Shown here: positions 1 to 57,350 of the stretch, one piece after another | Layout of the letters: each line of letters starts with the position of its first letter | Position numbering within the stretch: the first letter of the stretch is position 1 | From: Blasia pusilla | Taxonomy: Eukaryota | Direction: 5' to 3' | Assembly: GCA_050084515.1 (NCBI GenBank) | Contig: CM114271.1 | Location: 27,280,001 to 27,344,000, forward strand | Length of the DNA stretch: 64,000 nt | Made by a program: the position numbers and the translations under genes | Notes under the pieces: generated by a model | Seen by the model: the letters and a program-made list of their open reading frames with translations, nothing else | Databases searched by the model: none | Told to the model about the DNA's origin: nothing

Positions 1-1209
1 AACTATTAATCAAAATATTTTCGGGGTATAATTCCCATGTTTGTCAAAAAAATAAAATTAAAAAAAGAGACAAAAATTCATGAGAATTAAATGGCAAACA
101 AATTGTATGGGAAGAGGGAAACAAAGGGAAATTAGGAAAGAAAAAAGGAAGCAAGCGAATTTAAATGGAAGGTTTTACCTAAGATTTGTACAAAGCTTTA
201 AAATGGTACATTTACAAAGAAATAAATGTGCCTATTTTAATTTTAATTTTTAAAACGTATTTAAAAATAGAAGAGCCAAAAAATTATGAAAATAAAATCG
301 GAAAAAATAGGGAAATTTCCCGAAAATGTGGAAAATTGGAGAGAAGGGGAATTTTTTATTTTTAAAAGGATATTTTATTTATAAAAATATATAAAATATT
401 AGGTTAGGGCTAGAATCAGTAGCCCAAACCTACCCTTCATCTATCTACATGTCCCGACTCTACCTGCCGCTGCCTCCTTCGTGAATCGTGCGGCCCCTAA
501 ACGCTCTCGCTCTCTCCGTCTGATCTGCGATCGGACGGCTGGGGCTAGGGATGCTGCCGCCACTGGCCCGCTTCCCCCTTCTCCCCTACCCCGCACGACT
601 CTCACTCTCCCCCGACCAATTTATGATCAGATGGGTGGGGCAAGGACGCCGCTGCTCCTGGCCCCCTTCCCCCTTCTCCAATCAACTTTCTCCCCTCCCT
701 CGTATGATCTGCGCTCAGACAGATGGGTAAGGGACGTTTCCGTCCCTTGCCCCTTCTCCCCTACCCCAATCAACTCTCACTCTGCCCCGCTCCTCCGCTC
801 TCACTCTCCTCCATTTTTCTTTTGACCTCTAGTCTCCATTTTGTGTTTTGGTCTCGTTTGTCGTGCGCATACACATCGATACACAACGTACATCGCTGTC
901 ACCCAACACACATACAAACACGCTTGATCCCATGCTAACTCATGGCATCCTAACAACGAGACAAGAAGTACTAAAATATCTCCAATAAAGTAAGATCCAA
1001 TCTCTCTCTATACCATCTCACACCATAACTCTCAAAGGTGTGCACTCTATCTCATGTCAAACCAAACCCACTCTCCTAATGAGAGGCTTGGGTTATACTC
1101 ACAAGGCAAGGGACCATAGCTCCGCCGCCTCATACCAAGAGGTTCAACAAAGAGAGAATGAGCTTTCAAGCTCTCTCTCCTTAAGGTAAATCCCTCCCCT
1201 CTCCCAAGC

Positions 1210-1530
1210 TGTCGCGCCCCTACTCTCCTTGAACATCAATCTTTAGTGTTGCGGAAGCGTGCGTTCAGTAGGTCACGAACTCATCGCCGATCTGCACCCA
1301 AACACGCACTCTCGTTAGTCGGGTTTGGCCAACCGGCGTTCCAACCCACCGAGTCCTAAACTCGGCGTCTCATCAAGCTCAACCTTCCTTAGTTCCTAGC
1401 TCCCAACACATGGCAAGTCCTTCAAGACTTGGAACAGACTTCCTGGTTAGTCCAGGGATCTGAAACGGCACTTGCACGCCTAGCGATCCCAACTGTTCAA
1501 CGGTCCTCGTGTGAGTTCCAAACCGAGCCC
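1210..1530 (-). repeat. Short 3' terminal repeat of the chromovirus (only the distal ~320 bp of the LTR)
   Basis: Near-identical to 6430-6750. Similarity stops after ACCGAG(A)CCC; the remaining ~680 bp of the LTR is absent here. Confidence 0.9.
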
Positions 1531-1802
1531 GAGTGTAATCCAACACAAGGTCCTGTTCTAGGTGCTTATCCATATACGAGCTCTCACCTCAAATACTCCT
1601 TGTCTGTCCACTTGTCGTACATTCTAAGTCTATGATGAACGACTCATAGCCATGCACTACCACATACAAATTGCAATCAACACTGGTATCGAATCTCCAA
1701 ATCCATACACTCCTTTATTGCAACACTAGCATATTCTAGTTACAACGGCCTTCGGCCCAAGATTCCACTGATTACAAGTCATGTCTCTAGCTTCTCCTCG
1801 TA

Positions 1803-4800
1803 CTAACGTATGTGCTTCGCTTGTGTTCGCTTGAAGTCACGCAACAATTCTTGCGCGTGTTCCAAATCCTCTTCCGCAATCCAAGTCGCCTCCTTCACAT
1901 GGTAGCCCTTCCATTTTACCAAGTATTCATACTTGTTGGCCCGACGCCTCGAACGTTAGATGGTCTCCACCTCGAACTCCGGCTCCTCATTTACGATGAC
2001 CGGGTGCGGTCTCACCACCTGTCTCCGCTCGAAACGTCCATTATCTTGAAGGTATTTCTTCAACAATGACACATGAAAGGTCGGGTGAATCTTGAACTCG
2101 TCCGGCAGCCTCAACGTATACACATCCTCAAACGGGTTTGTCACAATCACATACGGTCCAAAGATACTTTTGGCGGACTTCGCAAACAACTCTTTCGGAA
2201 GAGTGAGATTCTTCACACTCAACCACACTTGTTCTCCAACTTGGAATCGTACTTGGCGCCGACTCTTGTTAGCATGCTTAACGTACCTCATTTGAGCATT
2301 TGCAAGACTTCGCCTCGCGCTCTCTTCTCGTTCTCGCATCTCTACCAACAAACTTTCTGTCGTCACTTGTCGTGTTCGTGCCAATGTAGTACCCTTCGAA
2401 GGGCTAGATCAAGAGGCCCTTCGGCTCGTCCATTTGCCAGGAGAAACGGAGATTCTCTGTTGCGAATGCTTGGTCGAGTTGTAGCAAAGATTCCGCCATG
2501 CTCACCACCACCGACCCAATCGCGTTGATCAAAGACCGACATAATTCCTCAAATCGATTCACGATAGAGTTTACCTTTTCATCTGTCCATCCGCTGTGGG
2601 TGGAAAGCCGTCATCAAACTCAGCTTGGTCTTAAACCTTTCGAACAAGTGCTTCGAGAAAGCACTGGTAAACTTTGGATCCCGATCTGAAACAATGCTCC
2701 TCGGCAAACCATGCGCACGCCACCAGCTATCGAGGAATAGTTGCGCCGTCGTATACGCCGTTGCGGAATCCACCGTCGGCACGAATCTCGCCAACTTGCT
2801 AAACCGATCAACAATCACCAAGTATAGCGTTGTATCCCCAGATTTCGAAGACTCGTGATGAAATCCATACTCACACTTTGCAAGGGTCCTTCGGGATCGG
2901 CAAGGGATGCAAGCAAGCCTTGTTTCTTATCATAAGAGACTCTATTCGCTTAAGGTGTCACCACAGGTCTTCACATATTGAGCAACATCCTCCTTCATGT
3001 TGGGCCAAAAGAACCGCCGATAGAACGACTAGCGAGATTTCTCTCCTTTATGTCCGCCAAGGGTCCGTCGTGACATTCCGCTAACACCTTGGTTCGCATT
3101 TCGCCTTGCCCTACATAGATCCTCGTGTTTGAACCTTAGTAAACCGTGACTCAAACTTATGTTGGCCACCTTCTCACCCTCGCTTCAACTTCCTCGGTAT
3201 TCCCTCGCTTGAGCATCCTTCATATATCCTTCACGAATCCTTCTCTCCAGATCTGTTTCCTTAGGGAACATTGCTCTCAAGACTGTGTGTCGTCGATGGC
3301 ATGTGTTCCTCCTGCGACTTAACGATCCTGGAATCACATTATCTTTACCGGCTTGTGGATCAACTCTACATCCATCGGCGCCAAGGTATCATGCCACCGC
3401 AGATTGTTTCGGTGTCACTCGATCCTGGGTCTCAAAATACTTGAGTGATATATTATTGGTGAATACTCGAGTCCTGGTGGAGCCCTAGATAATGCCGCCA
3501 CTTCCTCAAGAAATGTACCACCGCGAACAACTCTTTTCGTGAGTAGGCCATCTCCTTTCGTGTCGCTAAGCTTCTTGCTCTCATATGCCACCGGTCTCCC
3601 TTCTTGCACCAACATTCCCGCAATCGCGAAATCACTAGCATCGATATGCACTTGAACGGTTTGTCAAACTCGGCAGCTTTAACACCGGTTCTGCGATAGA
3701 ATCTGCTTCACTCGGTTGAATGCCTCATTAACTTCCAGGTCCAAGTCGTGTTGGCAAACTTTGCCGTCAATCCGTGAGAGGTCTCACAATTCCCGAAAAG
3801 TTTTTCACATAAGTACGATAAAATTGCAACGCACCTATGAACCTCCTCATCCCCTTTACCAAGTGGATGGGGTTCCCACTCGGAAATAGCCTTTACCTTT
3901 TCCATGTCCGGTCGACGCCATCTCAGATCGACCACGTGACCCAAGAATTTGATCTTACTCCAACCAAATTCGCTCTTCTCTACATTCGCATCTGGTGATT
4001 TGCCCTTAGCTTAGACAAGACCGCTCTCACATGTAACGTGCTCCTCTAGTGACTTGAATAGATAAGTATATCATCGATATAGATGATAACATACTTATCC
4101 ATTTCCTTGTGAAAAATGGAGTTCATCAATGTGGTGAACGCCGGAGGCGCGTTACATAGACCGAAAGGCATCACTACAAACTCAAAGGAACCATATCTCG
4201 TCCCGCACGCATCTTCTCCACATCGCCTCGGCAATCCGAACTGGTAATATCCTCGACTTCAAGTCAATCCTACTGAAATATCTCGCTGCCCGACCTATCA
4301 AAGAGATCATCTATCCTTGGAAGAGGATAATTGTTCGAACCGTCACTTTGTTGGTGCACGGTAATCAACACACTGACCTCATCTTTCCATCCTTCTTCTT
4401 TACAATGAGAACAGTGCTCTATAAGGTGACTTGCTAGTCCTAATGTAACCCTTTTCCAAGAGCTCACTTAATCGCTTTTCAACTCAAGAAGTTCCTCCTG
4501 ATTCAACCTATATGGTGCTTTTGAAGGCGGTTGGGAACCGGGTATGATCTCTATCTTATGATCTACGGCTCTATGCGACGGCAATTCGTCGGAAGCTCAT
4601 TTGTCAAGACATCCTCAAACTCCTTGACCACTTCTGAAGTGGTTCTGGGACTCCCCTTGAAGCGGCGTCCGATCTCTGCAGTATCGCTTGTAGCCTCCTC
4701 CACTTGTCTCATCAAGTAGAGAAATCCATCCTCCAACTCAGTCATGCTCCTCCTTGTGATCGAGTTCACCAACTCCATCTTCGCTGGAACCTCACGGACC

Positions 4801-6300
4801 AACCGCACAGAATCGTTTGCCTTTTAGCAAGACGCTCAACCTCAATGGTCGGCGTCTTAACTCCACCTCATACGCATCTAGGAGTGTATTCCCAAAACTC
4901 CGTCAATGCCGTCCATTTCGCATACAGTGAAATTCTCCTTCAACTCGAATACCCCGCATCCTACTTTCAAACCCAAGACCAAATCAGAAGTCCGATGAGA
5001 CTTGCCTCCTACAAATCCCACTCAAATGGGCTCGTCCGCCTTAGAGGTAGACAGCCCCAGTTCCTTCACGATTCTCAAGCTTAGGAAGGAGTGCGAAGCA
5101 CCTGTATCCACGACCAACAACACATCGCGATCAGCAATCTTGGATCTTAGGTACACCAAATTGTGCGTCGTCTTGGTGACTTGAAGGGACGTCTCCATAT
5201 CGCCCGCCAACATATGCTTAGCAGCAAACGCAATCATACTCCCATTACTAACCTTCGGTTTCGAACAACCTTTCGACAGTGCCCGGTTCGCCCGCGGTTG
5301 TAGCATATGACCTTGCCGTTCCTCGTCTTTGAGTGTTGTCCTCCTTTCGCCGCATGAAGTTCCACTCGCTTTTTCTTTGCCGGGGCAGCGACTCTCGCTT
5401 CGTCTTGGCCCCACTCCAGCCTCTTTTGAACGCCTCCTTATTTTTCGACTTCTTGAAAAAAACTTTTGACTCGAAGGGTTTCTAGGTTTGGACCTCATCG
5501 TCCCCTAATCCGCTCCGCTAGCTTCGAAGGTCCGCGCAGTCTCGGCAACGTCGGCATTCGGTAAAGGGGCTTTCGGCGCTCGGCTTGAGTCCACTAATGA
5601 AGATAGCCTTCTTCGGCGTGCTCATCCATCTTCGGACTAGAAGTCGGTTTCGCACTAAACTCCCTCACATACGCGCTTAAGGAACCACTCTGCGCATCCC
5701 GACGCATTCCACCGTGTCACGCAACCCTTGGTACTCGGAGTGAACCGATCCCCAATCAACTCCTTGAACTCCTCCCAACTCGAGGTGACTCACCGCCCGA
5801 GATATTCCTCTCGTTGAGCGGTCCACCATTGTAGAGCATGATCCTTGAGAAAAGTAACGGCTATCGTCACCTTGTCTTTCAGCTTTGACCTTCTCGCGCC
5901 TCGAAATGCCTGATTCGATTCCGTAAGGAGATCCTTCACTTTCGCGAGCGCCCCACTCCAATAAATGGCGTGGCGGTTCGTCTTGCAAAGCTTTTGCCCG
6001 CACGGGTTTCGAGTGGCCTCTAACTCGGCAATCCGCTTGCTTTGCTTTGGGACATCTGCTCCACCAACACCTTCAACAAGTCCAACGCCTGGCTAGACTC
6101 CGTCCTTTCCTCGAGTTTGGGCCCACGGCCCCGCGGAAGGAGTCGCCAGGGACGTCCTCACGATCGGGCGTTCGGCTCTTGGGTCTCGACTCCTCTATAG
6201 CTTCACGGTCCGGCATTGGTTCCTCTCTCGGTTCACGCCGCTTGATTCGGCGCTTCTTGGGTTGTTCTCCTCGATCGCCATCTCCAAGCCAACTCACTCA
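1803..6300 (-). pseudogene. Chromovirus gag-pol (gag, PR, RT, RNase H, IN, chromodomain), fragmented by many frameshifts
   Basis: ORF fragments 5022-5498, 4046-4234, 3415-3651, 2579-2821 and 1956-2384. Manual translation of 1803-1955 gives EYLVKWKGYHVKEATWIAEEDLEHAQELLRDF (chromodomain). The gag boundary is approximate. Confidence 0.9.
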
Positions 6301-6416
6301 GATCTCCTCCTCGTTTCTTGCGTCCCTCCTCGAGCGTCCGAGTCTAGCCGCTACCTTAAAATTTCCCAAGCGTCCGGCTGATCCCACGACCCCAAGTTCT
6401 CACTCACCAAGGATAA

Positions 6417-6427
6417 GCTCGATACCA
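6417..6427 (-). promoter_or_regulatory. Primer binding site, initiator tRNA-Met type
   Basis: Minus strand reads TGGTATCGAGC 2 nt after the LTR end. The canonical plant PBS-Met is TGGTATCAGAGC, so one A is missing. Confidence 0.85.
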
Positions 6428-6429
6428 CT

Positions 6430-7427
6430 TGTCGCGCCCCTACTCTCCTTGAACGCGTCAATCTTTAGTGTTTGCGGAAGCGTGCGTTGATGGGTCACGA
6501 ACTCATTTCCGATCGCACCCAAACACGCACACTCGTTAGTCGGGTTTGGCCAACCGGCGTTCCAACCCACGAGTCCTAAACTCGGCGTCTCATCAAGCTC
6601 AACCTTCCTTAGTTCCTAGCTCCCAACACATGGCAAGTCCTTCAAGACTTGGAACAGACTTCTGGTTAGTCCAGGGATCTGAAACGGCACTTGCACGCCT
6701 AGCGATCCCAACTGTTCAACGGTCCTCGTGTGAGTTCCGAACCGAGACCCAAGTAATTGAGTCGCGGCGTGAAATCCAAGAGGGATATCTAAAATCGCCT
6801 CAATGGATTTGGTGCAGGTTTTCCAACCCAACGCCCAAACTCGCGTTCCGTTCCATGCCCTTGAGCGCCCTGGCGCCCAAAGTGGGGTTTGGGTTCCAAG
6901 CACTCTCGGAGACCTTCCCCCTTACTAGTACTTCTGGGGTTCTCCAATAACCCCTCCCCTTTGCGAAAAGAGGTTCGGGCCCTTCATTGTGGCCCTCAAC
7001 CCGACTCCACTTACAGTCGTTTTCGGGTCGTGTCTCGTCCGCTGCTTATGCGTTTGCAGCGATCTTTGGTGTGTTTGAACCGGCTCTTCATAAGCTTTCC
7101 AACGCACTCTTATTTGCTCCAAACGCATCTCGGCGCTAAAAGTTATGGCCATAAATACAGTCGGAAACTCTCAAACGCAAGTGGCGTTCCAAATCCGGAT
7201 CTTTCTTTTGGCAACCCACTTCCTAGACTCGACTTCTTTCAAGTCTCATTCCGCGTTTGGTCCAGGTTTCTGAGTCGCGACCATCACATGTGAAATGCGA
7301 CTTCTCGCTCGCGTCTCATCTCTTGTCTCCTCTTTGAGACAACTCCAACGCGCAAACCATCTTAGCGTGAGCCCGCTAATGTTCCGATGTTCCGCTTGGC
7401 ACTTGTTTGGTCATGAGGGTCGCGACA
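6430..7427 (-). repeat. 5' LTR of the chromovirus (998 bp)
   Basis: TG...CA with 7-bp terminal inverted repeat, flanked by the PBS on one side and the TSD on the other. Confidence 0.92.
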
Positions 7428-7724
7428 CAAGCTCTCTCCATGGTAACCTATTCTCCCAAGTCACCTCCTTGGCTCTTCACTTGATGTAGGAGGTCAAGGG
7501 TCATTTACCAAAAATAGAAAGTCAATCATATAAGTAAAATGGTACTTACCTAAAATAGTAAATTTCTCAATATGGCTCCGAATGAGCCGAAACGAAGGAG
7601 AAGCCTGCTCTCTCAGGTTTCTCGGGGCCTGAACACATCATCCTTAACCTATTGAGCGTGTCCTCCACTACCCTTGAAGGTGCTCTACTAGATCTCACCG
7701 ATCTATCATAAAAGACGTGACAAT

Positions 7725-7852
7725 TGTCGTGCGCATACAAATCGCTACACAACATACATCGTTGTCCCCGAGCACACACACAAACACGCACGATCCCATG
7801 CTAACTCATGGCATCCAAACAAGGAGACAAGAAGTATTAAAATATCTCCAAT
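7725..7852 (-). repeat. Internal 128-bp duplicate of the LTR terminus, directly adjacent to the 3' LTR (copy 1)
   Basis: Direct repeat of 859-986, separated from the LTR end at 7722 by the 2-bp spacer AT. Confidence 0.9.
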
Positions 7853-8053
7853 CGCCCCCATAATTGGTGGTTAGGTCCCTCTAACTCTAGATAGCCATCT
7901 ATCCCTACCTACCATGACATACATCTCTCGGACACTAAGAGCAAGAAGGTCGGGTGCTCATGTGGCCCCATCGTTAGTCGTCTTCCTGTCATAGAAAAAG
8001 TCGGAATCAAAACCTACCTAATATCTCCTCTATGTACATCTGGGACACATCCA

Positions 8054-11030
8054 TCATCCCCAAGGAACCCTAGTGAGAGGTGGCGTCAGACATGCCATAT
8101 GCCAACCTTGCAAACATCCATCACAGATTAGCATCGTGGCCGCACCACGGGCAGAACCACACAACATACAATGCAAACCTGTAGGAACTATTGCTAAGCT
8201 TGAATCTACTGTACCATCAATATTAGGAAGATGACATGGCGCAAAATTACGCACATGGTCCTTCCATACCATACCAGCGCGTCCCTCCAGCAAGAGAATA
8301 CCGGATGGCAAAACGTCACGTACTCTCGGGATAGTGCGCCTTGCAGTCACATCCAACGTCATCGCTGTTGTCTGCTGTAAGTAGACATAATCTCCTTGAT
8401 GAAACCTCAGGATAGTTGGTTGATAACCATCACCCCGAATAGTCGTATACCTCAACGTATCTTGATGCTGCACAATCGCCAAGTTCTCGAACGCCATGGG
8501 CATCACTCTCTGAAACAACTCAGCCCTCTGAGAATATGCTCGCATCCAAAAATCTAGGTCATCAAGGTCCAGCACCTCACCAACATCTTGACGAATGGCC
8601 ACAGGTAAATCTGGCTCTCGGCCATAAAGTAGCAAGTACGATGAAAAAGACGATAAGGATGCATGCCTCTGAATCTGTATGTCATCGCCAACCAGTGCAA
8701 CTGCAGGTCCCAATCTCCTAAGTGACCTCTCTACAAGCCATACTTGCGTAAACCCCTCTTCACCGTATGCACAACTCTCTCCGCTAATCCATCCGTCTCA
8801 GGATGATCTCGCGAAGTCGTGCGATGGTCGATCAGCGCCTGATCAAACAAGGTCTGGAACTCACCGCGAAACTCGGTACCCTGGTCTGTCAACGTCTCAG
8901 CCGGTGCACCATAATGACTCATCACTCTGTCAAGGAAGGCATAAGCTACTCCCTCACTTGCTTTGTCAAGCAATGCAACCAACTCGATCCACTTTGATAA
9001 ATGATCGACCATCATCAACACATAACGACTGTGACGCTCCGTCAAAGGCAAAGGTCCTGCAAAATCCAAATTCCATCTGTACCCTAAGCCAATGATTGGT
9101 AACGGATACAACTGCGGAGTCAGAGCATTGAACGATGCTCGGACCCGATCACACACCATGCACCTGGAAACAAATAACTGAACGTCACTCTGCATGCCTC
9201 GCCACCAATACTGAATCTGGAGCAAGCTGTACGTCCGCTTCACCCCAAAGTGACCCAACTCCTCGTGGACATGCTGCACTAGTCGTGCTCTCTGTAAAGG
9301 ATACGGCACTACACGTACTATGCCATCCTCCCAAACCCGCAAAACATGTGTCCCCTCCCAACGGAACCGTCTAGCCTGCTCTAGGATTTGATCCCGCTCT
9401 CTAGCACCCACGGTGCTCGCAAAGCTGATAGTCCGAAGGTACTCCAAGACTAATCCATCATCATGAATATCTCAGCCATCTGTCGTCTCCTCACTGGCCT
9501 TGGGATCCAAGGACTCTCCACTAGACCTCGCCATTGATGTATACACAATGTGGCTCTCCATAGCCAACATGCTTAAATAGGCTGACGCATGCCATCTTGG
9601 CACTGACTCCTCATCACTCTCTCCATGCCATCGAGCTCCAGTTGCATCTTGTTGACTCGGGCATGGGTTACGACTCAACCCATCTGCATCCTGGTTGAGC
9701 GTCCCTGGTCTATGTACCACCTAAAAATCATACTCCTTCAACAACAGAGCCCATCTCGCAAGCTTCCCTCTAAGCTTGTCGGACTCCATCAACCACTTCA
9801 GTGGTTGATGATCAGTGATGATGGTAAGGGGATTGTCGAATAAGTAACACTTGAAATGTGCTACAACCCACACTGAAGCCAAGCACCCACCCTCATACAA
9901 GTTGTACTTCACCTCTGCAGTATTGTTCGAGCGGCTAGCGTAAGCCACCACGAACTCTGTACCCTCATCATCATGCTGGATGAGCACTGCTCCAAGCCCC
10001 AACATGCTCCAATATATGTGCAACTGGAAAGGACGCCCCCTGATCGGTCTCCTCAAGATGGGCACGGACGTCAACCTGTCCTTGAGCAACTGAAATGCTC
10101 GCTCCTGCTCATCCTCCCTGTGCCACTCGTGATCCACCTTGGTCAGCAAGATCAGCGGCTTCGCAATCGAATTGAATCCCTTGACGTACCGCCGATAGAA
10201 GTTTGCCAATCCCATCAATCTGTAGGGCGTGGAATAAGTGAGATAGCCTCTACCTTTGTCTTCTGAACACCAAGGCCCGCAAGGTATATCGTATAACCCG
10301 AGTACTCAATCTGATTGCAAAAGAACTTGCACTTGCTTTGATGTAGCTTCAGCCCATGTAATTGCAATCGTCGAAACACCTCCTCTAGATGTCGCTCATG
10401 CTCCACAACCGTGACGCTAAAGACTACGATGTCATCAATATAACACCTAGCAAAATCCAGACTAGCTAAGATCCTATTCATGACCCTCTGAAACTCAGCC
10501 GGGGCATTCTTTAACCCAAATGGTAAGAATCGCCACTTGTACAAACAATTCTTCTCATGAGGATCGATGCCCCAAAATGCCATCTTCTGCATGTCCTCCA
10601 ATCTGATAGGCAACTGATGGTATCCGGCTTACAAATCCAATGAACCTTTGAGTGACCAATCGCATCAAAGATCTCTCCAGGATAGGCATGGCATACTTAT
10701 CGGACTTTGTCTGCCGATTGATAGGTCGGCAATCCCCACACATCCGTCTATCCGTCCAGTTGCCATGTACATCCGTCTTGGCGGGCATGACAGTGGCAGA
10801 TGCATACTCCCCATACGACATCTCCACTAGTCCTGCTCCAACCAAGTCGTGGCTCCTACTCTGAATCAGAGCCCTCCTATATCACTACACCTCTAGGGTC
10901 GTCAGAATATTAGCGTATCACTCGACAACTCAATGCGGATCCCCGGTCCCTTCAGCGTGCCCAAATCCTCCATGCTAAACGTAAAGCAGCTCCTATAACT
11001 CTTGAGGAACTGATGTATTCGGCGCCGCTC
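8054..11030 (-). pseudogene. pol remnant: RT - RNase H - integrase - PHD finger
   Basis: ORFs 10555-10845, 10215-10613, 9721-10218, 9472-9720, 8731-9447 and 8054-8713, separated by in-frame stops and a few frameshifts. C-terminus CMLCGSARGAATMLICDGCLQGWHMACLTPPL is a PHD. Confidence 0.93.
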
Positions 11031-11399
11031 TTCTCCTGTCAACTGAGGGCCCATATCTAGCTCCCAAGTCTCCATCGTGACAACGGTAGGACTCTCTGAC
11101 GGGGATATCGGTGGTTGCTATGGTGCAACCCCGTCTCAAACAACAACACTCGACCGCTCTCCTGTAGCCAACTGCAAACTCTGATCTCCTCCACATGGAG
11201 TGCCCAGAACCACGCTTGACATACCGACAAAACATCCCAAGAAGTCCAAGGGTGTCTCTCTTGATCTCCCCTCATGTGTCGATCTACTCAGGTCTCGCCC
11301 CCAACCACTGCCTCCACCATCTCAATAGGCATGGGGCTCACCAACGCAACTGTTGTGATCTGTCGCAATCTCATCCGACGCTCACCACTCCCAAATCAA

Positions 11400-12345
11400 G
11401 ATCCTCGTCAGCGATTCGGGTTCATCGCTCGAGCCAAGACATGGCGTCATGATGCCTCCGATCATCGACAGATCGCCATCACTCACCTCGTGGGGAAATC
11501 CCATCGCCCGCTCTCTCTCGTCGGCGTTGGGCTCCACCAACCTCTGAACCTGGTCATCCCAAACCAAACTAGGACCGGCCTTCTTATATGCATAGGAAGC
11601 GGGAAAACTCACAAATGTGGGAAAGGTTGCCCGCGGCTTGCCTACCCTGTTGACCACAGTCAACGGTGGTCGATCATCGTGCCTCACTGCCCATGAGCGA
11701 CGACCTGGATCCAGAATGGAATCCACTAACAAATGGGAGGGGCGCTCCACTCTCGCATACGCCCTATGTAAGAGCGCATGGGGCACGAAGTTGGTCCATC
11801 ATAGACGCGGGCGATGGGCTCCAGAATCCACACTCGCTGTATCCAAGAACACTGCTGGGCCGATCCAGGCACGCATCTGATGAGCACTCGTCACCTCCCG
11901 TGAACTGGAGTCTCCTAAGATCGGCACATTCTCTAGAATATAGGCTCGAGAAAAGGTGCTCATGCAACTGCCGTAAGACCCTCAACATCTCCCAAAACAA
12001 CCTGGACCGAGTGTGAGCCAACCCGTTGCCTCGTCCAGCACTCTATTGGCCCTGACATAGCCAACTCGCAATGGCCAAATCAATGGTGCCTAACCGATCT
12101 AAGTCCTGGGCCCCCAACAACGAAATATCCCTCGATAGGGAACTCTGGTATCCCTGTACCGCGCATGCAAAAAATAAGTCGGGAAAATGTAGGCGTAATT
12201 GCGCCACATGTCGTAGTGAGACGCGCCTTGCAACATCATCACTCTCCACATACATGTACTGCTGCACTCGCACTCATGCCCGCAAAATAGCAGCTAACAT
12301 GGTACTAATCCTTCCAAAGAGATCTAACACTCGAATACCCTTCTC
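11400..12345 (-). pseudogene. Retrotransposon-encoded C5 cytosine DNA methyltransferase domain (DNMT3/DRM-like catalytic motifs)
   Basis: Manual translation in order: motif I IRVLDLFGRIST (~12340-12301); II YMYVE; III RDI; IV/V DLAIASWLCQGQ*SAGRGNGLAHTRSRLFWEMLRVL (Cys codon 12055-12057); VI YILENVP (ENV 11925-11933, after a frameshift); VIII LDTASVDSGAHRPRL*WTN; IX ERERAMGFP; X-like RHVLARAM (after a frameshift). Confidence 0.9.
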
Positions 12346-12779
12346 CGGTGTACACCACACAATGGGTGTGGTATCCAAGGGTGTCATTGTAGCACTCCCT
12401 GCTACCTCGGGTTCCTCATACCTATCATGCTCCGGTGCAAATGCCTCACTCCACGCGGTTTGCACGTGCTCATCTGCCAATCATCGAAGCTCCTAAGTCG
12501 AGCCCCACAGTGGCACCTCTCCTCCACGGAATGATACGGCTACCATAACACTCCTCTCCATAGAAATTTTAGGAACATGAGTATTCTCTGCATGCACATG
12601 CCCCTCAATCAAATCCCTAGGCCAAGTGATGGCACTGCTAAATGCTGCTAAGGTCGCCATCTCTCCTGGCCCTTGCTCGATCACTGCACATGTGAATCAA
12701 ACGAATAATGAGCTAAGGCACCCATCACCTAACTACCATCTTGGTCTGTATAAGACGCTGACTCTTCCCATTAGTCCAC

Positions 12780-13150
12780 GGAAAACTCCATTGGGTATAA
12801 TCTTGCTCCACCAACCAAGACGTTGTAAGACTCTCCATTAGTCACTATCGCATTGGCTCGCACCACAGACTCATCTATAGGATATCTCGGGCGAATCCTC
12901 ACCACAACCTCCTATCAGATAATATACTGTGTGATACTCGCTCCACCTAAGGATGTTTATATCCGGAATGGACAACGCTCCACATCGGCTCTCGTCAAGC
13001 CCAATTGTCTGAATGACGCTTTCCCCAACATCAAGGATTACGCTCTAAAATCCAACAAGACGCGCTGCGTACCAAAAGTTCTACCTCCAGGACTCACCAA
13101 CTGGAAGACCTCTCCTCGGTTATCCAACAACACAACACCAGGAGAACATC
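12780..13150 (-). pseudogene. Aspartic protease remnant of the DNMT/PHD element
   Basis: Minus strand translates QRVLLDFRA*SLMLG (degraded LLDSGA) and later YNVLVG. Homology is lost beyond ~13150. Confidence 0.65.
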
Positions 13151-24400: not shown

Positions 24401-25600
24401 TCATGGTCCAGCATACCGTAACAGTACTATACTGAGTACGTCTTAGTCATCCCATATGTCATAATGATCAACCGTTGCATGCGCATGAACGCCTCCCTGA
24501 GACTCTCACCCGATCTCCACTGAAAATCTTGTAGACTCTTCAACTTGTTGGTCCGCACACCATATAGCTCCTCCCCAACTGTCGGAGGAACTCCACTGTA
24601 GGACTATAACTTGGTGGTCCTCTACCACGAGAGGTCTCTGCCACCTCACCACTTGCACCGCCATCCTCTCCATCTAGTCCCCGGGATGCTGGTGTAGGTC
24701 TCTCCGCCCTCACTATCCCATCATACGCCTTGCGACCACTAGTGGACACATACCCAATACACCCTCCAGGCATCGATCTCTACTGAGTATAAAGATCGGA
24801 ATTCCATGTAGTCAACCATCGGAGGACTCTGTAAATGCTGGAACAGACCCTTACACGCCATGAAAGGGTTGAAAGTCGTAGGGGCTCAAATCTCATGGAA
24901 GTCACACCATGCGTCAAACTCCTGAATGAAATCGTCAAGATCTATGGTGCCTATTGCACTCGAGAAATGACGCATGCTTCAGTGGCCCATGTCATCCATT
25001 TCTCCCCACATATCATTGTCGCCATCTGCGATCTCATTACTTGACCCGTTGTCTAGTGATAACAATCCAGCCACAGATAGAAGTCGGGATAGTTCCTCAC
25101 TAGAAACCCCTCGATACCTCACGCCACTCCGTGTCACTCTACTACCACTGATCATACCTTCCCGTTCATCCGAACCCTAGGAGAATGTTGTGATAAAAAC
25201 CCTGTCTCACCCGCTCAAGCACTCAGACTCATTGAGAGTCTCCTACGTTCCTCACTATCTCACCTACCCTAATGCGAATCCCGTGATGTCACACCCGGCC
25301 TCGCGCACACTCAACACTCGGGCTCACCCTAAGCCTTCCAACTAACTCACCTAGACTACTGACAATGTCGGGTCACACACGCAATCCCTACTCTGCAACC
25401 GCCGTATATCTACAAACATGCTACACATGCATGGAGACTACACTCGTCACCATCGCTACACCCATCAAACACCAACAACTACTCGATATCCAACCCTCTC
25501 AATCACACAAGATAAGTACGGGAAAAGGGAGTCGAATGGGTAACTTGAACATGTCCGCCAATCTACTACACCGTCAACACTCACAGCTCCATGTGCCTTG
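21480..25600 (-). mobile_element. Old, degenerate Gypsy element related to the DNMT/PHD family (gag recognisable, pol highly decayed)
   Basis: MLDHELGRRVRDGTLL..PTLKVVFELSERIELNM resembles the gag at 48848-49816. Zinc knuckle QCDHCHRYGHTRDTC. Leader near 25510-25560 resembles 50085-50130. Faint pol-like DNA at 21480-22400. Boundaries approximate. Confidence 0.7.
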
Positions 25601-30991: not shown

Positions 30992-31152
30992 TGTCATGCG
31001 CATACACATCGCTGTCACTAAACACAAACGAAGGGGAAATCTGCTCTCTCAGGTTTCTCGGGGCCTCAGCATGTCGACCTACTGAACGTGTCCTCCACTA
31101 CTCACGAAGGCGCTCTTCTAGATCTCACCGATCTATCCTAAAAGACGTGACA
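30992..31152 (-). mobile_element. Internally deleted solo LTR (161 bp) of the DNMT/PHD family
   Basis: TGTCATG...CGTGACA with 4-bp TSD AAGA (30988-30991 and 31153-31156). Both LTR ends are joined at an AAAC microhomology. Confidence 0.85.
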
Positions 31153-43476: not shown

Positions 43477-44116
43477 TGTTGTGCGCATACACATCGCAAC
43501 ACAATGTACATCGCTGTCATCGAACACACACACAAACACACACGATCCCATGCTAACTCATGGCATCCATACACAGAGGCGAGAAGTACCAAAATATCTC
43601 CAATAAAGTAAGATCCAATCTCTCTTTACACCATCTCACACCATAGCTCTCAAAGGTGTGCACTCTCTCTCTTGTCAAACCAAACCCATTCTCCTAATGA
43701 GAGGCTTGGGTTACACTCACAAGGCAAGGGACCATAGCTCTGCCGCCTTATGCCAAGAGGTTCAAGAAAGAAAGAATGAGATCTCAAGCTCTCTCTCTTG
43801 GAGGTATACCCCCTTCCCTCTCCCAAGCCCTCTCAACGGTAACCTATGCTCGTAGGTCACCTCCTTGGCTCTTGACCTGCTATAGTGGGTCAAGGGCCAC
43901 TTTCCAAAGTGGAAAGTCAACTAGCAACAACATGGAAACTTACCCAAAATAGTAAGTTTCACTATATGGTTCCAAATGAGCCGAAACGAAGGGGAAACAT
44001 GCTCTCTCAGGTTTCCCCAGGCCTCAACAGGTCATCCTCGACCTCCTGGGTGTGTTCTCCAATGCTCGTGCAGACGCTTTGCTAGATCCCACCGATCTAT
44101 CCTAACAGTCGTGATA
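43477..44116 (-). repeat. 3' LTR of copy 2 (640 bp)
   Basis: TGTTGTG...CGTGATA (terminal CA mutated to TA). Aligns to 859-1209 plus 7433-7722. Confidence 0.9.
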
Positions 44117-44118
44117 GC

Positions 44119-44246
44119 TGTCGTGCGCATACACATCGCTACACAACATACATCGCTATCATCGAACACACACACAAACACACACGATCCCATGCTAACT
44201 CATGGCATCCATACACAGAGGCAAGAAGTACCAAAATATCTCCAAT
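44119..44246 (-). repeat. Internal 128-bp duplicate of the LTR terminus (copy 2)
   Basis: Direct repeat of 43477-43604; 2-bp spacer GC at 44117-44118. Confidence 0.9.
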
Positions 44247-46334
44247 CGCCCCCCTAGGTGGTGGTTAGGTCCTTATAACTCCAGATAGCAATCTATCCCT
44301 ACCTACCACGATATACATCTCTAGGACGCTAAGAGCAGAAAGACTGGGTGCTCATGTGGCCCCATCGTTAGTCGCCTTCCTGTCATCCATGTCACAGAAA
44401 AAGTCAGAATCGAAACCTACATAGTATCCCCTCTATGTACATCTGGGACACATCCATCGTCCCCGAGGAACCGTAGTGAGAGGTGGCGTCAGACATGCCA
44501 CATGCCAACCTCTCGAACATCCATCACAGACTAACATCATGGCCGCACCACGAGCAGAACCACATAACATACAACGCAAGCATGCAGGAACTACTGCTGA
44601 GCTCGGATCTACTGTACCATCAATGTTAGGAAGGTGACATGGCGCATAACTACGCACATGGTCCTTCCATACCATACCATCGCATCCCTCCAGCAAGAGA
44701 ACACCGGATGGAAAAACGTCACACACTCTCAGGATAGTGCGCCATGCAGTCACATCCAACGTCCTCAGTGGCGTCTGCTGCAAGTAGACATAATCTCCAT
44801 GTTGAAACCTCCCGGTAGTTGGTCGATAACCACCACCCCGAATAGTTGCATAACTCAACGTATCCCAATGCTGCGCAATCGCCAAGTTCTCGAACGCCAT
44901 GGGCATCACTCTCCGAAATAACTTAGCCCTCTAAGATCATGCTCACATCCATATATATGGGTCATCAAGGTCCAACACCTCACTAGCATCTTGACGAATG
45001 GCCGTAGGTAAATCTGGCTCTCGGCCATAAAGTAGCAAGTGCAGTGAAAAAGACGGTAAGGATGCCTGCCTGTTGAATCTGTATCCCATCGCCAACCACG
45101 GCAATTGGAGGTCCCAATCTCCTAGGTGACCTCTCTGCAAGCCATACTTGCGCAAACCACTCTTCACCTTTTGCACAACTCTCTCCGCTAATCCATCCGC
45201 CTCGGGATGATCTCGCGAAGTCATGCCGTGGTCGATCAGCGCCTGATCACACAAGGCCTGGAACTCACCGCAAAACTCGGTACACTGGTCTGTCAACACC
45301 TCAGCCGGTGCGCCATAATGACTCAGCACTCTGTCAAGGAAGGCATAAGCTACTCCCTCACTCGCTTTGTCAGGAAATGCAACCAACTCAATCCACTTTG
45401 AGAAGTGCTCGACCATCACCAACCCATAACGTTCAAGCCAAAGGTCTTGCAAAATCCAAACTCCATCTATATCCTAAGCCCATGATCGATAATGGATGCA
45501 ACTATGGAGTCAGAGCATTGAACAATGCTCGGACCAAATCACACACCATGCACCTAGCAACAAACTACTGAACGTGAGTCTGCATGCCTCGCCACCACTA
45601 TTGAATCAGGAGCAAGTTGTACGTCCGCTTCACCCCAAAGTGACCCAACTCCTCAGGGGCATGCTCCACTAGTCGTGCTCTCTGCAAAGGATGTGGCACT
45701 ACGCGTATTCTACCATCCTCCCAAACCCTCAAAACATGTGTCCCCTCCCACCGGAACCGTCTGGCCCGCTGTAGGATCCGATCCCGCTCTCTAGCACCCA
45801 CGGTGCTCGCAATGCTGCCAGTACAAAGGTACTCCAAGACTACTCCATCGTCATGAATATCTTGGCCACCTGTCGTCTCCTCACTGGCCTCAGGATCCAA
45901 AGACTCTCCACTAGACCTCGCCATCAAAGTCTCCACACTCTAGCTCTCCATATCCAACATGCCTAAATAGGCTAAAGCGTGCCATCTTGGCACTGACTCC
46001 TCATCATTCTCTCCATGCCATCGAGCTCCACTCGCATCTCGCTCACTCGGGCATGGGTTACGACTCAGCCCATGTACATCGTGGTTGAGCATCCTAGGTC
46101 TATGTACCACCTGAAAATTGTACTCCTGCAGCAACAAAGCCCATCTCACAAGCTTCCCTGTAAGCTTGTCGAGCTTCATCAACCAATTTAGTGGTTGATG
46201 ATGAGTGATGATGGTAAAGGGGTTGCCGAATAAGTAACACATGAAATGTGCGACAGCCCATACCGCATCCAAGCACTCACCCTCATACAAGCTATACTTC
46301 ACCTCTGCAACGTTTTTCGAACGACTAGCGTAAG

Positions 46335-46808
46335 TGTCATGCGAATCCACATCGTCATACAACATACATTGCTGATATACCATACTCACATACATACATA
46401 ACATAGACGAGAGCATCCAAAAACACAAGTGTACCACAACTGAAATCTGCGAAAGACCTACTGTCATAAAACACATATACAATCATATACAATCGAGCCA
46501 AACCCACTCCACGATGGGAGAATCAAGGTCGAAGCTTGCGGGAACCACCATAGCCAAGAGCTCTATTCACTACCAAGGCTAACTCCCAACGCAACAGACT
46601 CAACTCAAAGAACTAACTATTCTTTGAGTGCACTCCACACTATATCCTCCAACCTAAGAGCGGGCCCTACTGGAAAAGTCACCCTCAACTGAGTAATCCC
46701 TAACCCTATGTATGAAACCGCATCTCTACCTAGACACTACGGCCCTACATAAGGTATGGCCTCTACTAGCACACTATACTCTATGACATAATCTGTATGG
46801 TCATGACA
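46335..46808. mobile_element. Solo LTR (474 bp) of another family inserted in RNase H of copy 2
   Basis: TGTCATG...CATGACA with 4-bp TSD TAAG (46331-46334 and 46809-46812). The empty site GCGTAAGCCACC is present in copy 1 at ~9938-9949. Confidence 0.92.
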
Positions 46809-47477
46809 TAAGCCACCATGAATTCTCTACCCTAATCATCATGTTGGATGAGCACCGCTCCAAGCCCCAACATGCTCCAATCTGTGTGCAACTGGAAAGG
46901 AAGCCCCATGATCGGTCTCCTCAAGATGGGCACGAACGTCAATCTATCCTTGAGTAGCTGAAATGCTCGCTCCTGCTCATCCTCCTAGTGCCACTCATTA
47001 TCCACCTTGGTCAGCAAGGTCAGTGGCTTCGCAATCGAACTAAATCCCTTGACGTACCTCCGATAGAAGTTCGCCAATCCCATGAACACACAAACGTGGC
47101 TCACATCTGTAGGGCGTGGAATGCGTGAAATAGCCTCTACCTTTGTCCGGTGAACACCAAGGCCACCTGGGTATATCGTATGACCCAAGTACTCAATCTA
47201 GTCATAGAAGAACTTACACTTGTCTGGATGTAGCTTCAGCCCATGTAACTGCAATCATCGAAACACATCCTCTAGATGTCGCTCATGCTCTTCAACCGTG
47301 GCACTAAAGACTACGATGTCATCAATACAACACTGAGCAAAATCCACACCTGCCAAGATCCTATCCATGACCCCTTGAAACTCAGCCGGGGCGTTCGTTA
47401 ACCCAAATGGTAAGAACCGCCACTGGTACAAACAATCCTTCCCGTAAGGATCGATGCCCCAAAATATCGTCTTGTGC

Positions 47478-53900: not shown

Positions 53901-56900
53901 CTTGGACATTGGTATCCGTTGAAGGGATTCTTTCAAATAGATTTTGGAGACAATGTAGTAGTGTAGTATGGCTTACTTGATTTGCGCACCAACTCATGCC
54001 AACTATTAAAGAAGCGATAAAAGAGGCAAGTATACTGAAAGGTAGGATTTTCACACATCTCCCTCAAGGAATTTGTGGCACATTCGGAAGATCGTTGAAT
54101 TTTTTTCCATGAACTCTTGGGTGTCGTATCCCTAAGCTAAGCCTCTGACTTGGCATTGATCTAATGGTTTGCATAGGTACACATAAGCCTACCGACCATA
54201 TGGGCACCCTACCCTCTCTTCTCTTTGTGTCAGGGAGCGACGTGCCACCACAAGATTTACATGCAAGATTTATGCACTAATAGTGGGGGCCATGAAAATT
54301 CACATTTGAGATGATTGGGAATGAAAAGACTCACATATGGAGGATGATAATGTAAAGTTATTGGGCACATGATGAATTTCTAGAGTTTAACATTATAAAA
54401 TGAGAAAGATATTTTTTGTAATAATATATCTAAAACATTTCACAAATTCACATATTTTATTTTGTTGATTGGGGAAAAAAAGAAGTTGTTCCTTTTCCAA
54501 TCCTCGTCTTTCAATTGATAAAAGAAATCACTCATTTGAATTTCCCAAAATAGAGATGAAATGTTTCTCCCAATCAAACTTGAATATCAAATCTAATATT
54601 GATTTTTTTTCATAATTTTGAAGAATAATTCTTGTCTCAAATTTGTCCTATTATACTTTTTTCATGTTTTCCCAAAATCGGAATTAAATCCCCCTCCAAA
54701 CTAAACTTGAAAATTAAATTTGTAACAATGGGAAATTTTAATAAATTAATATTTTAAAAAAAGTAAAAATTAAAAGAAGGAATTAATCTTACTATTATAA
54801 CCTTCCCTTCATCATTTTCTTAATTTTACCCAATAAAGAAAAGGCTTCATGATTTGGCTCCATGGAAAAAATTTATATATCACTCATTAGTTAGTCCTCA
54901 AGACGAGGTAGCAACCTTAATAGTACAATATCATAAGTTCCTAAAATGATAAGTTTAATGGTGATACATCTACTCAATCCTCATAGTCATATGCTTAAGT
55001 GATATCAGTACATATGGACTTCAAATAATCATATTGTATTTAAAAAAAATTCACAAGTAGAAATACTTCTTTAGACTCATATATTAAATTACCGCTTGGA
55101 AAAATGGCTTACCCAAAGAGATACTGGTTTCTAGATCTCCAAAGTGAGAACCCCATGACCATATATGGGATCCAAGGGTGGCTTGGACTTTCCCTCGGTT
55201 AACTTTTAGTAGCCCTAAATTTTTTCCCATTGGTTGTCACATGAGATTAGGCACGACAAATCATCATAAATTATTTTTCTCATGAGGCAAGATAGTCTCA
55301 AGAAATTATTATACACAAAAATAATGTGGTTCAAAGCCGTGCAGATAACCAACATCCCCGTAGAAACCATAGATATAACTTGTTTTCTTACTATATTCAC
55401 ATTATCATTCCACAAATGATACACATTGAATTTTTCAAAAATTATGGTGTATTTTTTGCAATAATCTACTAGTTGATGCTTGTAGGATGCACGTGTTATA
55501 AATGATTGGTAATTTAAATTATCCATCATTACATTAAAACACGTTACCCATTAACTTAATTGACCCTAAAGATATGTGTTAGAATGACATTAGTTGAGAA
55601 CTCCAAGTGTCAAAAATCAAAAGAGCACTCTCTCAAAATACTATAGATTAATATATAGCCCATGCTATTCACAATTTTTTTGTTTCAAAGTAAGAAGGAA
55701 GGGAATTGAATTTTGTTTCCCAAAACAAAGAGTAATATCTCATGGCATTTTATTCAGGTCTCTTTTTCCTTGATGTAACTTATTAGGAAAACTCATACAA
55801 GTGCATACAAAGCATGTGATTTCTCGAGGTAGAACCATTGTCAAATTACAATGGTTTATAAGAAGTTTTTTTTTTATTTTACACTATTGCAAGACTAGGT
55901 GACAGACTCTACTTTTCAAAGCACGACCATATAGACAAACTTAAAGAGAGAATGTTGCCAATATGCATCCACCATTAAAGGCACCCAATACTTGAAACAT
56001 TTGTTCAGGAATTAAAATTTTCATGGGATCATATGTGAGAGCAATTTTTAGACACCTAAATCTCCAATACATCCACCTCATGGGTATATAAGCTAATTTA
56101 GGATTTGCTATCTATAATATTGTTTGACGACCATCTCCTCATTGGCGACACACCTCCATCTTACACAAGTTGTTAACAATATCTCCTATCTTAACACATT
56201 TTATTATCATTATATGTTACTTTTTCTTACGTACTATATATCCTTCATATACCATATAACAAATTGTTTTATGTTATTATACAATATCAATTCCCACAAA
56301 AATTTTATGGGATCACATGTTAGAGCTACAAATTTTATTTTGAAATTTTCCAGTGTGTTCACTAAAGTTCACTTTGTAACTCACGTGCTTGCAATATATC
56401 ATGTCTTTTATGATAGTTTGATAAGAATCCCCTTTGTTTTGGCTCATATGGAGTTATATAGAGAAATTTATTATTTCGGGGAAATTCTTATTAGGAGGGT
56501 AGATAACTTTCCACTTTGGAAGTGATCTTGACCTTGAATAGTTGGTCAAGAGTTAATGAGATAACCTACGAGCACATGTTATCATGGAGAGAGTATCACA
56601 TATTAGTTAGCTGATGGATAGAATTCTACCTCCTCAACGACATAGAGGATTAGCGGACTATTTGGGTGTGACTTAGTCTTGAGATGTTGGATGAGGTTGG
56701 TGAGAAGTCCATTACGTTGGGAGCGTTATTTTGTACGATTTCCATTTTTTCTATTTATGGCCAAATGGCATACGTTTTGTTGATTTCTTCATAATGAAGG
56801 GTGGGTGTGACTTGATATATCGATGTAGATTCCAGAGTGGAGTTGACCGTGTGAGTCATTTTTACTATGATTGTACATGAGAAAGATGTGTAGTGTCGAT

Positions 56901-57039
56901 GTATATGCGTGAGTATATTTTGTTTACAAGTGGATCAACCCGCTTGTTGGGAAGATCAATGTCATGTGATTTAGATATGATCAACCATGTGGATTTTGTA
57001 GTGATGTGTATGCTCATGACAAAATTTTGGGAGAGGGAA

Positions 57040-57161
57040 GGGGATATACCCAAAGAGAGTGATCTTTAGAGCTCATTCTCTCTTTGTTGAATCCTAAATA
57101 AGCTATGGTTCTCCATGTCCTACGAGTAACCCAAGCCTCTCATTAGGAGAGTGGGTTTGGT

Positions 57162-57221
<60 letters not shown>

Positions 57222-57350
57222 ATTTGTGTGAGAGCTCGTACACGGTCATTTCGGTGTTCAGATGCCATGAGTGAATATGGTACCTTGCGTGTTTGTGCTC
57301 GTAGTCGGTGATAATGATGTATGTTGTGTAGCGATGTGTATGCGTATGAA
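57040..57350 (+). mobile_element. Diverged partial LTR of the DNMT/PHD family in opposite orientation, containing a (GA)n expansion
   Basis: GTAACCCAAGCCTCTCATTAGGAGAGTGGGTTTGG and GATGTATGTTGTGTAGCGATGTGTATGCG are reverse complements of LTR segments. Confidence 0.8.
57162..57217. repeat. (GA)n microsatellite
   Basis: Direct reading. Confidence 0.98.

Follow-up and report, generated by a model that had tools for sequence, protein, structure and literature searches.

A split direct repeat with a duplicated 3' segment in Ty3/gypsy-type elements of Blasia pusilla and their relatives, and a possible joined-end route of integration

The window analyzed here is a stretch of 64,000 nucleotides from Blasia pusilla (GenBank assembly GCA_050084515.1, contig CM114271.1, positions 27,280,001 to 27,344,000 of the forward strand). 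It carries, on its minus strand, two insertions of one retrotransposon, which we call copy 1 and copy 2 (Table 1). The Pfam models RVT_1, RT_RNaseH, Integrase_H2C2 and rve matched both copies in that order, and protein relatives of 1033-1083 aa are colinear with the pol region (tblastn). By its order of reverse transcriptase (RT), RNase H and integrase (IN), the last with an H2C2 motif and a DDE core, the element is of the Ty3/gypsy type. A PHD finger lies at the C-terminus of pol/integrase in both copies (8068-8167 and 44436-44570, minus strand) and in most relatives, in the place where chromoviruses carry a chromodomain. The pol reading frame of copy 1 is disrupted by frameshifts, and the similarity of this copy to the relatives ceases near 13145. 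The 5' ends of both copies are outside the window.

Read in the orientation of the element, both copies run from pol through a 3' untranslated region (3'UTR) and a G-run into a 128-bp segment that we call A (this first occurrence, A1), followed by 2 bp, a segment B (B2), a second occurrence of A (A2) and the flank. A1 and A2 are 95.4% identical in copy 2 (BLAST E 2e-56) and 89.7% identical over 126 columns in copy 1, a likeness far above chance in both. Positions 859-1209 of copy 1 and 43477-43828 of copy 2 share 89% identity, and the homology between the two copies ends exactly at 859 and 43477, with unlike flanks beyond; the two insertions are therefore independent. A sequence-only reading of the window had described just this, a 128-bp duplicate of a long terminal repeat (LTR) terminus in two independent insertions with GGGGG just upstream of the internal occurrence, and both features are present, the G-runs being ATGGGGGCG in copy 1 and TAGGGGGGCG in copy 2. 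For neither copy was a 5' occurrence of B (B1) found within the window by sensitive BLAST.

Complete elements were obtained from relatives. Metagenome contigs were scanned with an integrase alignment, which gave 80 loci (designated L); 61 were examined, the 19 shortest being omitted. Downstream of the integrase, a pair of A segments 250-900 bp apart, that is a 3' A-B-A tail, was present in 19 of the 61 loci; most of the others had too little downstream sequence to judge this, and some of the 19 are one locus assembled twice or more (L015=L017, L007=L011, L019=L020, L058=L067=L074, L045=L048). For 21 loci the sequence extended 5 kb or more upstream and 1.8 kb or more downstream. Five of these (L011, L017, L026, L040 and L053) combine the 3' A-B-A tail with a far-upstream repeat that matches B alone; L057 adds a sixth B-only 5' end, with a truncated B2, and for L048 and L055 a search of the 10 kb upstream yielded no B1. 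Taking all loci with B1 and the leader that follows it, A is present at none of 10 distinct 5' ends, and the leader comes directly after B1. The relatives thus do not carry two identical direct LTRs, one per end, since their 5' end is B only and their 3' end is A-B-A.

In the relatives B1 starts with TGTCATG or TATCATG and the last A ends with CGACA. Of the eight elements with both ends, six have perfect 4-bp duplications beside the start of B1 and the end of the last A (L011 AAGG, L017 TCTC, L026 AATC, L053 GGTC, L009 TACA and L020 TGTT); the duplication of L029 matches at three of four positions, and L040 has a damaged B1 start, beside AATG. Other assemblies show the same arrangement in 14 or more distinct elements, which belong to four sequence families. 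We are therefore highly confident of the following integrated order: target duplication, B1, leader with the primer binding site (PBS), gag-like region, DNA methyltransferase (DNMT)-like region, RT, RNase H, IN, PHD finger, 3'UTR, G-run, A1, GC, B2, A2, target duplication. Within it, the 128-bp duplicate, A1, makes up the inner half of a direct repeat that is split.

Reads from the same species allowed the family in the window to be assessed. A raw whole-genome shotgun run with the same species label (X17) and three contig sets were aligned to positions 43300-45500 at 85% likeness. X17 placed 42,119 reads out of about 2 Gb read, so that the family must comprise thousands of copies. With both directions summed, its depth was about 2000-2400 in the internal region, about 4400 in the best-conserved part of B, and about 3700-4300 in A with both sites added, most A reads having been assigned to the A1 site; depth is low over the first 60 nt of B, where copy 2 differs from the family majority. 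The ratio of A to B to internal region is about 2:2:1, against the 3:2:1 expected for two B-A LTRs and an internal A. The biggest class of loose ends in X17, 2319 reads, leaves the end of A, and consensus agreement there is only 0.33 (0.37 in X2), so that the sequence beyond represents random flanks. No conserved sequence class was seen in the reads beyond the A end, though 5' LTR-to-PBS junctions would yield one. At the 3'UTR/A1 boundary X17 has no class of at least 576 loose ends among those listed, and the junction is accordingly continuous in most family copies. The arrangement therefore holds on raw reads, a check that the sequence-only reading had proposed. A separate observation from the same reads is that differences between family copies over 43300-45500 are mostly C>T (206 places) and G>A (193), each other type being found at 49 places or fewer; this is the pattern expected from deamination of methylated cytosines.

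A1 evolves in concert with A2. We counted as by-element those sites at which both A copies of one element differ from both of another, and used the cross pattern as a measure of homoplasy. Pairwise comparison of seven distinct L011-like elements gave 67 by-element, 24 by-position and 23 cross sites, and the window pair gave 6, 1 and 0, respectively. Position-specific inheritance of A1 and A2, hinted at by a few A2 variants shared by L003 and L011, was rejected, the 24 by-position sites matching the 23 of the homoplasy control. The 5' half of A is unalignable between families but identical within one element. The duplicate is thus homogenised as LTRs are, and internal and terminal A share element-specific variants, both as the sequence-only reading had maintained. 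Its further expectation, that A copies would cluster by element in a tree, was borne out for the diverged elements and not for the recent ones: in a maximum-likelihood tree of 20 A copies the pairs of L023 (support 100/98), L027 (94/90), Wc1 (87/86) and L026 (81/89) group by element, the recent burst is not resolved, and 7 of the 20 copies have their partner as nearest neighbour. Grouping by position was not seen in this tree.

The signals for priming lie at the borders of A1 and B1. The G-run (TAGGGGGGCGAG, ATGGGGGCGAT or TCTGGGGGGGG) ends exactly at the A1 start in every family examined, and each of the 13 distinct elements in which it is clear has it immediately beside A1. It is probably the plus-strand primer tract, which would make the first base of A the likely plus-strand origin. 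The proposal that the duplicate replaces the polypurine tract (PPT) is therefore not supported: no purine tract lies directly upstream of B in either window copy, but a G-run is conserved exactly at the start of the internal A. On the other side, five of the nine loci with B1 and leader have, directly after B1, a stretch of 10-16 nt that perfectly complements a segment of B situated 27-32 nt downstream of a GGGGGTATAAA-type (TATA-like) box (16 nt in L011, 12 in L053, 11 in L020, and 10 each in L026 and L029); among 1000 shuffles, no more than 3 gave a match as long as the observed one. The L011 and L053 families differ in sequence here and each remains complementary to its own partner (CTCAAAGAACT/AGTTCTTTGAG and TCTAGAAAAACT/AGTTTTTCTAGA), and the complementarity is thus covariation. 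It suggests self-priming of the kind described for Tf1. A tRNA-type PBS was considered and rejected: neither the leader nor B begins with TGG. Both the G-run and the leader site are placed as PPT and PBS would be only if the repeat unit is taken as A-GC-B. Plus-strand and minus-strand priming would then both look conventional, contrary to the unusual plus-strand route put forward in the sequence-only reading, and what appears unconventional is the position of the integrated ends.

Since the transcription start would lie in B, the PBS after B1 and the PPT before A1, the predicted linear cDNA is [A-GC-B]-PBS-...-PPT-[A-GC-B]. The B2|A2 joint of the genomic copies equals the right end of this cDNA placed next to its left end, and in L053 it links precisely the last base ahead of the PBS with the first one behind the G-run. 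Among close relatives this joint varies by insertions and deletions: L003 has 1 extra nt, L017 has 17 extra nt plus CGAG from the primer tract, and the L053 family shows three lengths. The A1-GC-B2 junction, by comparison, always has a spacer of 2 bp (GC, AT, AC or GT, that is GC or transitions of GC). With its arms it forms a near-palindrome, CACGACA-GC-TGTCATG, of which the genomic ends are the two halves; the CA-nn-TG junction does therefore resemble joined ends, as had been suggested. Splicing was rejected as the origin of the B2|A2 joint, because GT follows the B1 end in L026 only and the joint is one base off an AG acceptor. The genomic copies look like circular permutations of the predicted cDNA, with an apparent 2-LTR circle junction at B2|A2.

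Our best reading, which we hold somewhat likelier to be right than wrong, is that the DDE integrase integrates a joined-end or circular intermediate cut at the palindrome. Transcription would start in B1, with the R region within B; the minus strand would be self-primed at the leader start, as in Tf1, and the plus strand begun at the G-run, so that ordinary reverse transcription would yield a linear cDNA with the LTR unit A-GC-B. The ends recognised by the integrase (...CACGACA and TGTCATG...) would then face each other inside the LTR and would not be at the cDNA ends. Joining of the cDNA ends, in a 2-LTR circle or an LTR-LTR tandem, would create the B2|A2 joint. The integrase would cut the palindrome on the leader side, between CA and GC on each strand, leaving 3'-recessed CA ends with 2-nt overhangs, and the permuted molecule would be inserted with a 4-bp duplication. 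The internal A1-GC-B2 would be an inherited copy of the attachment site and would also supply U3 to the LTR of the following generation. Repeat-less B-...-A copies and free B-A units would result from a 1-LTR circle or from cutting at both palindromes. The sequence-only reading, too, had arrived at a circular or tandem intermediate that is resolved at CA-nn-TG, and this is the model that we narrowly favour.

Several points weigh against this reading. The circular or joined-end DNA is deduced from integrated copies, and the transcription start, the polyadenylation site and the primer are predictions from sequence. The B-only 5' end is seen in relatives, and for the window family it is supported indirectly, by read depth. 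Exact complementarity after B1 is missing from four of the nine loci, whose copies are mutated or degraded. A 2-LTR circle would hold two identical palindromes, and a cut at the other one would produce B-A-B-...-A, which was seen at none of the 10 distinct 5' ends; this argues only weakly against the reading (about 3-6% under equal use), because just 5-6 of these ends come from copies with a known A-B-A tail. Finally, the L011-like family has 11 distinct repeat-less B-...-A loci with a single A at the end (L004, L008, L009, L018, L020, L022, L024, L025, L029, L033 and L038) against seven with the A-B-A tail. L009 and L020 are among those with perfect 4-bp duplications, yet the repeat-less copies may be A-B-A loops collapsed in short-read metagenome assemblies or recombinants between A1 and A2 formed after insertion.

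The alternative that survives best, although we consider it unlikely, does without a double-stranded 2-LTR circle. The transcript would lack the outer B1 and A2 parts, A1-GC-B2 would serve only as template or splint, and the reverse transcriptase would restore the ends before the integrase inserts the element, as proposed for DIRS-1's internal complementary region (ICR) and the split repeats of PAT and Ngaro. PAT-like and Ngaro elements of the DIRS order are described, in the available parts of the sources, as having split direct repeats in the order A1-coding-B1-A2-B2 (PMC7192593, PMC5890265), and the first of these sources also sums up the ICR model for DIRS elements. The repeat architecture of our elements equals this one as there described: one 5' repeat and a three-part 3' tail whose inner junction equals the joined ends, with the implied need to restore or reuse joined ends, probably via a circular form. 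The internal junction exactly reproduces the genomic ends in joined form, and A1 and A2 evolve in concert; both facts also agree with end repair. It is opposed by the G-run and the self-priming site, which coincide exactly with the A-GC-B unit's outer borders, and by the fact that two-jump reverse transcription alone accounts for the B2|A2 joint. DIRS elements moreover have a tyrosine recombinase and no target duplication, whereas the clade of the window element has an H2C2 and DDE integrase with a PHD finger, TG...CA ends and 4-bp duplications. No tyrosine recombinase (Phage_integrase) was found in the ORFs (open reading frames) of the window, in those of L011 and L020, or in the protein relatives P0012, P0016, P0036 and P0041, the copies being degraded so that a lost ORF is possible.

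A further alternative is that the linear B-...-A-GC-B-A molecule is reverse transcribed directly, by extra A/A and B/B template switches on a read-through RNA, with primers at A1|B2 and no joined-end intermediate. Direct repeats in retroviral RNA promote template switching, and the conserved 3' half of A and start of B could hold primer functions beyond recognition by the integrase. Yet the B start, lacking TGG, is not complementary to a tRNA-type 3' end, nor is the A end rich in purines; no role would be left for the conserved G-run or for the complementarity of the leader, and the indel heterogeneity at B2|A2 fits end joining better than templated copying. We regard this route as quite improbable.

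The remaining explanations are refuted, or nearly so, by the reads of the species itself and by the relatives. The sequence-only reading had taken B-A as an ordinary LTR at both ends, with an extra internal A that stands in for the PPT and is renewed in every cycle. There are indeed solo B-A units flanked by target duplications, and A1 and A2 share element-specific variants, but such units are equally expected from B1/B2 recombination in a split architecture; A is absent after B1 at all 10 distinct 5' ends of the relatives, where the leader follows directly, and in the reads A is about as deep as B, not 1.5 times as deep, with no conserved class after A ends. This makes ordinary B-A LTRs very improbable. 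A longer A-nn-B-A unit as the true LTR at both ends, to which the G-run directly before the internal A might point, is hardly credible, and for the relatives it is refuted: their 5' repeats match B only, their target duplications adjoin the B1 start, and solo units begin at B. An artefact of assembly, or a tandem duplication that arose locally once the element was inserted, for which nothing speaks beyond the general risk with repeats, is scarcely conceivable given two independent window insertions, thousands of read-supported copies in the same species and the recurrence of the arrangement in at least 14 distinct elements of four families in other assemblies.

LTR retrotransposons and retroviruses integrate linear cDNA, their circles being seen as dead ends. 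The Panganiban-Temin model of the 1980s reportedly took the junction of the retroviral 2-LTR circle as the attachment site, and later reports had the HIV-1 and foamy-virus integrases cut the palindromic LTR-LTR junction. The likeness to the joined-end route lies in a palindrome formed by facing integrase ends, at which staggered CA cuts would recreate processed ends; the difference is that the retroviral palindrome is in the circle only, whereas the window element has it in every LTR unit and the circle-like joint, B2|A2, is in the genomic copies. TOC1 of Chlamydomonas also has an unusual LTR arrangement, with terminal repeats broadly split between the ends, and we know of no DDE integrase encoded by it. 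In Tf1 reverse transcription is self-primed, the transcript start pairing with a site just after U5. The relatives would resemble Tf1 and the Tcn1 type in having, just after U5, a site complementary to the predicted transcript start, about 30 nt downstream of the TATA-like box. The Tcn1 type is a plant clade without a tRNA-type PBS, for which self-priming has been predicted (Neumann et al. 2019, PMC6317226); it bears a chromodomain, in contrast to the PHD finger that ends the window integrase.

The protein relatives extend the comparison. There are 48 of them, the named ones from liverworts, a moss and green algae, and several distant relatives of the window integrase appear to carry a C-5 cytosine DNA methylase domain (PF00145), weakly matched in P0036 (E 7e-4) and P0041 (E 3e-3), both below the curated cut-off. 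An ORF of L011 (5627-6097) also has a weak PF00145 match below the cut-off (E 4e-4), and window positions 11493-12615 are tblastn-similar to the presumed methylase-bearing segments of relatives. This DNMT-like part lies upstream of RT in the window family, whereas the long relatives P0036-P0041 have it between RNase H and IN. Pfam searches of the upstream ORFs (those of the window and the 5' ORFs of L011 and L020) gave only this weak methylase match of L011, and no gag or protease model.

A similar element, KnitGypsy-Dnmt3 of Klebsormidium nitens, has been described, and a DIRS-like repeat structure in this Gypsy element is noted in the legend of Fig. 4c (de Mendoza et al. 2018, PMC5890265). 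As presented in the available part of that paper, it has the Gypsy domain set with a cytosine DNA methylase inside pol, comparable to the putative PF00145 domain of the distant relatives of the window element, and its DIRS-like repeat arrangement is also that of the relatives; the likeness is one of description, not of sequence (PMC5890265). A weak DNMT-like segment is also present in the window and in L011; its place upstream of RT, unlike that in the long relatives, counts among the differences. Boundaries, target duplications, priming sites and a mechanism are absent from that part of the paper, nor is a PHD finger mentioned there (PMC5890265). A 2026 preprint mentions "streptophytes (Gypsy-DNMT3)", its available part not discussing the termini. 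In the literature searched we found the name KnitGypsy in no paper besides PMC5890265, and no worked-out mechanism or circle-junction integration for LTR retrotransposons beyond the 2018 legend; the supplement of that paper may hold repeat borders. The architecture was thus already known, if barely, and the window element is another member of that kind. What we did not find in print are the borders, the duplications, the priming signals, and the reading of the tail as a circle junction with a built-in palindromic attachment site.

Tentatively, a whole green-algal/bryophyte-like clade of DDE-integrase Gypsy elements might integrate from 1-LTR or 2-LTR circles via the built-in palindrome, so that circles would be productive and each copy would hold a fossil circle junction; we hold this possible, if a little less probable than its opposite. 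If true, it would be a natural example of the long-abandoned route in which the circle junction is the attachment site, and a bridge between LTR and DIRS-type retroelements. The joined-end route, if it operates, would mean that an internal palindromic site can serve a DDE integrase in vivo, and would account for the DIRS-like repeats of a Gypsy clade, which the 2018 paper recorded but did not explain. The system is tractable, with a defined 18-bp palindrome and abundant natural copies. Standard LTR finders would misread such elements, whose B1/B2 pair has no duplication next to B2, and repeat-less B-...-A copies, if real, would be invisible to them; annotations of bryophyte-like and algal genomes may therefore under-represent the family.

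Table 1. Features of the split-repeat elements in the window (positions in the 64,000-nucleotide stretch).
Feature	Positions	Strand	Remarks
Copy 1, terminal A (A2), element 3' end	859..986	-	ends ...GCGCACGACA at 859
Copy 1, B2, 3' part	987..1209	-	interrupted at 1209/1210 by nested LTR element
Copy 1, B2, 5' part	7428..7722	-	B start TGTCACG at 7722
Copy 1, 2-bp spacer AT of the CA-nn-TG palindromic junction	7723..7724	-	
Copy 1, internal A (A1), the 128-bp duplicate	7725..7852	-	
Copy 1, G-run ATGGGGGCG (element strand)	7853..7861	-	adjoins A1 start
Copy 1, pol: RT, RNase H, integrase (H2C2 + DDE core), C-terminal PHD finger	8033..11100	-	Pfam; tblastn of P0009-P0012
Copy 1, region upstream of RT	11493..13145	-	11493-12615 resembles methylase-bearing segment of relatives
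Solo B-A unit, internally deleted (about the first 125 bp of B and the last 27 bp of A)	30992..31152	-	
Copy 2, terminal A (A2)	43477..43604	-	
Copy 2, B2	43605..44116	-	start TATCACG at 44116 (TG mutated to TA); holds GGGGGTATACC box region
Copy 2, 2-bp spacer GC	44117..44118	-	
Copy 2, internal A (A1)	44119..44246	-	
Copy 2, G-run TAGGGGGGCG	44247..44256	-	directly upstream of A1
Copy 2, pol (PHD finger, integrase, RNase H, part of RT)	44436..47477	-	broken at 47477/47478
Solo B-A unit, sister (L011-like) family	46335..46808	-	inside the RNase H region of copy 2
Solo B-A unit, diverged	56396..57349	+	70-78% identical to copy 2 repeat

The window also holds solo B-A units (Table 1). The one inside copy 2 is flanked by a 4-bp target duplication, TAAG (46331-46334 and 46809-46812), and copy 1 keeps the matching empty site; since this unit is L011-like, at least two split-repeat families coexist in the genome. 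The internally deleted unit is flanked by a 4-bp duplication, AAGA, and neither it nor the diverged unit has an A upstream of the B start. Within the B of the diverged unit there are two extra A-end-like motifs (about 56880-56910 and 56996-57021), and a (GA)n run lies at about 57165-57217.

A third, more distantly related element of this kind is represented on the minus strand by its 5' part, at 21780-25137 and, with a B-like region, at about 26100-26600. It has gag-like and DNMT-like regions, and its 3' part is missing. The B-like region has a GGGTATAAGAG box followed by a non-A leader, and the element is too diverged for its ends to be defined. The element nested in the B2 of copy 1 (1210-6749) belongs to another LTR family; its LTRs lie at about 1210-1530 and 6430-6749, with a spacing of 5220 bp, and it has a weak RT-like tblastn match at 3776-4477. 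Between it and the part of B2 homologous to copy 2, about 680 bp (6750-7427) have no counterpart in copy 2. Among the relatives, long tandem arrays are found at or near the 3' ends of three loci (L012:2492-5136, L077:10180-11180 and L023:5806-6347), and that of L012 begins directly after the terminal A.

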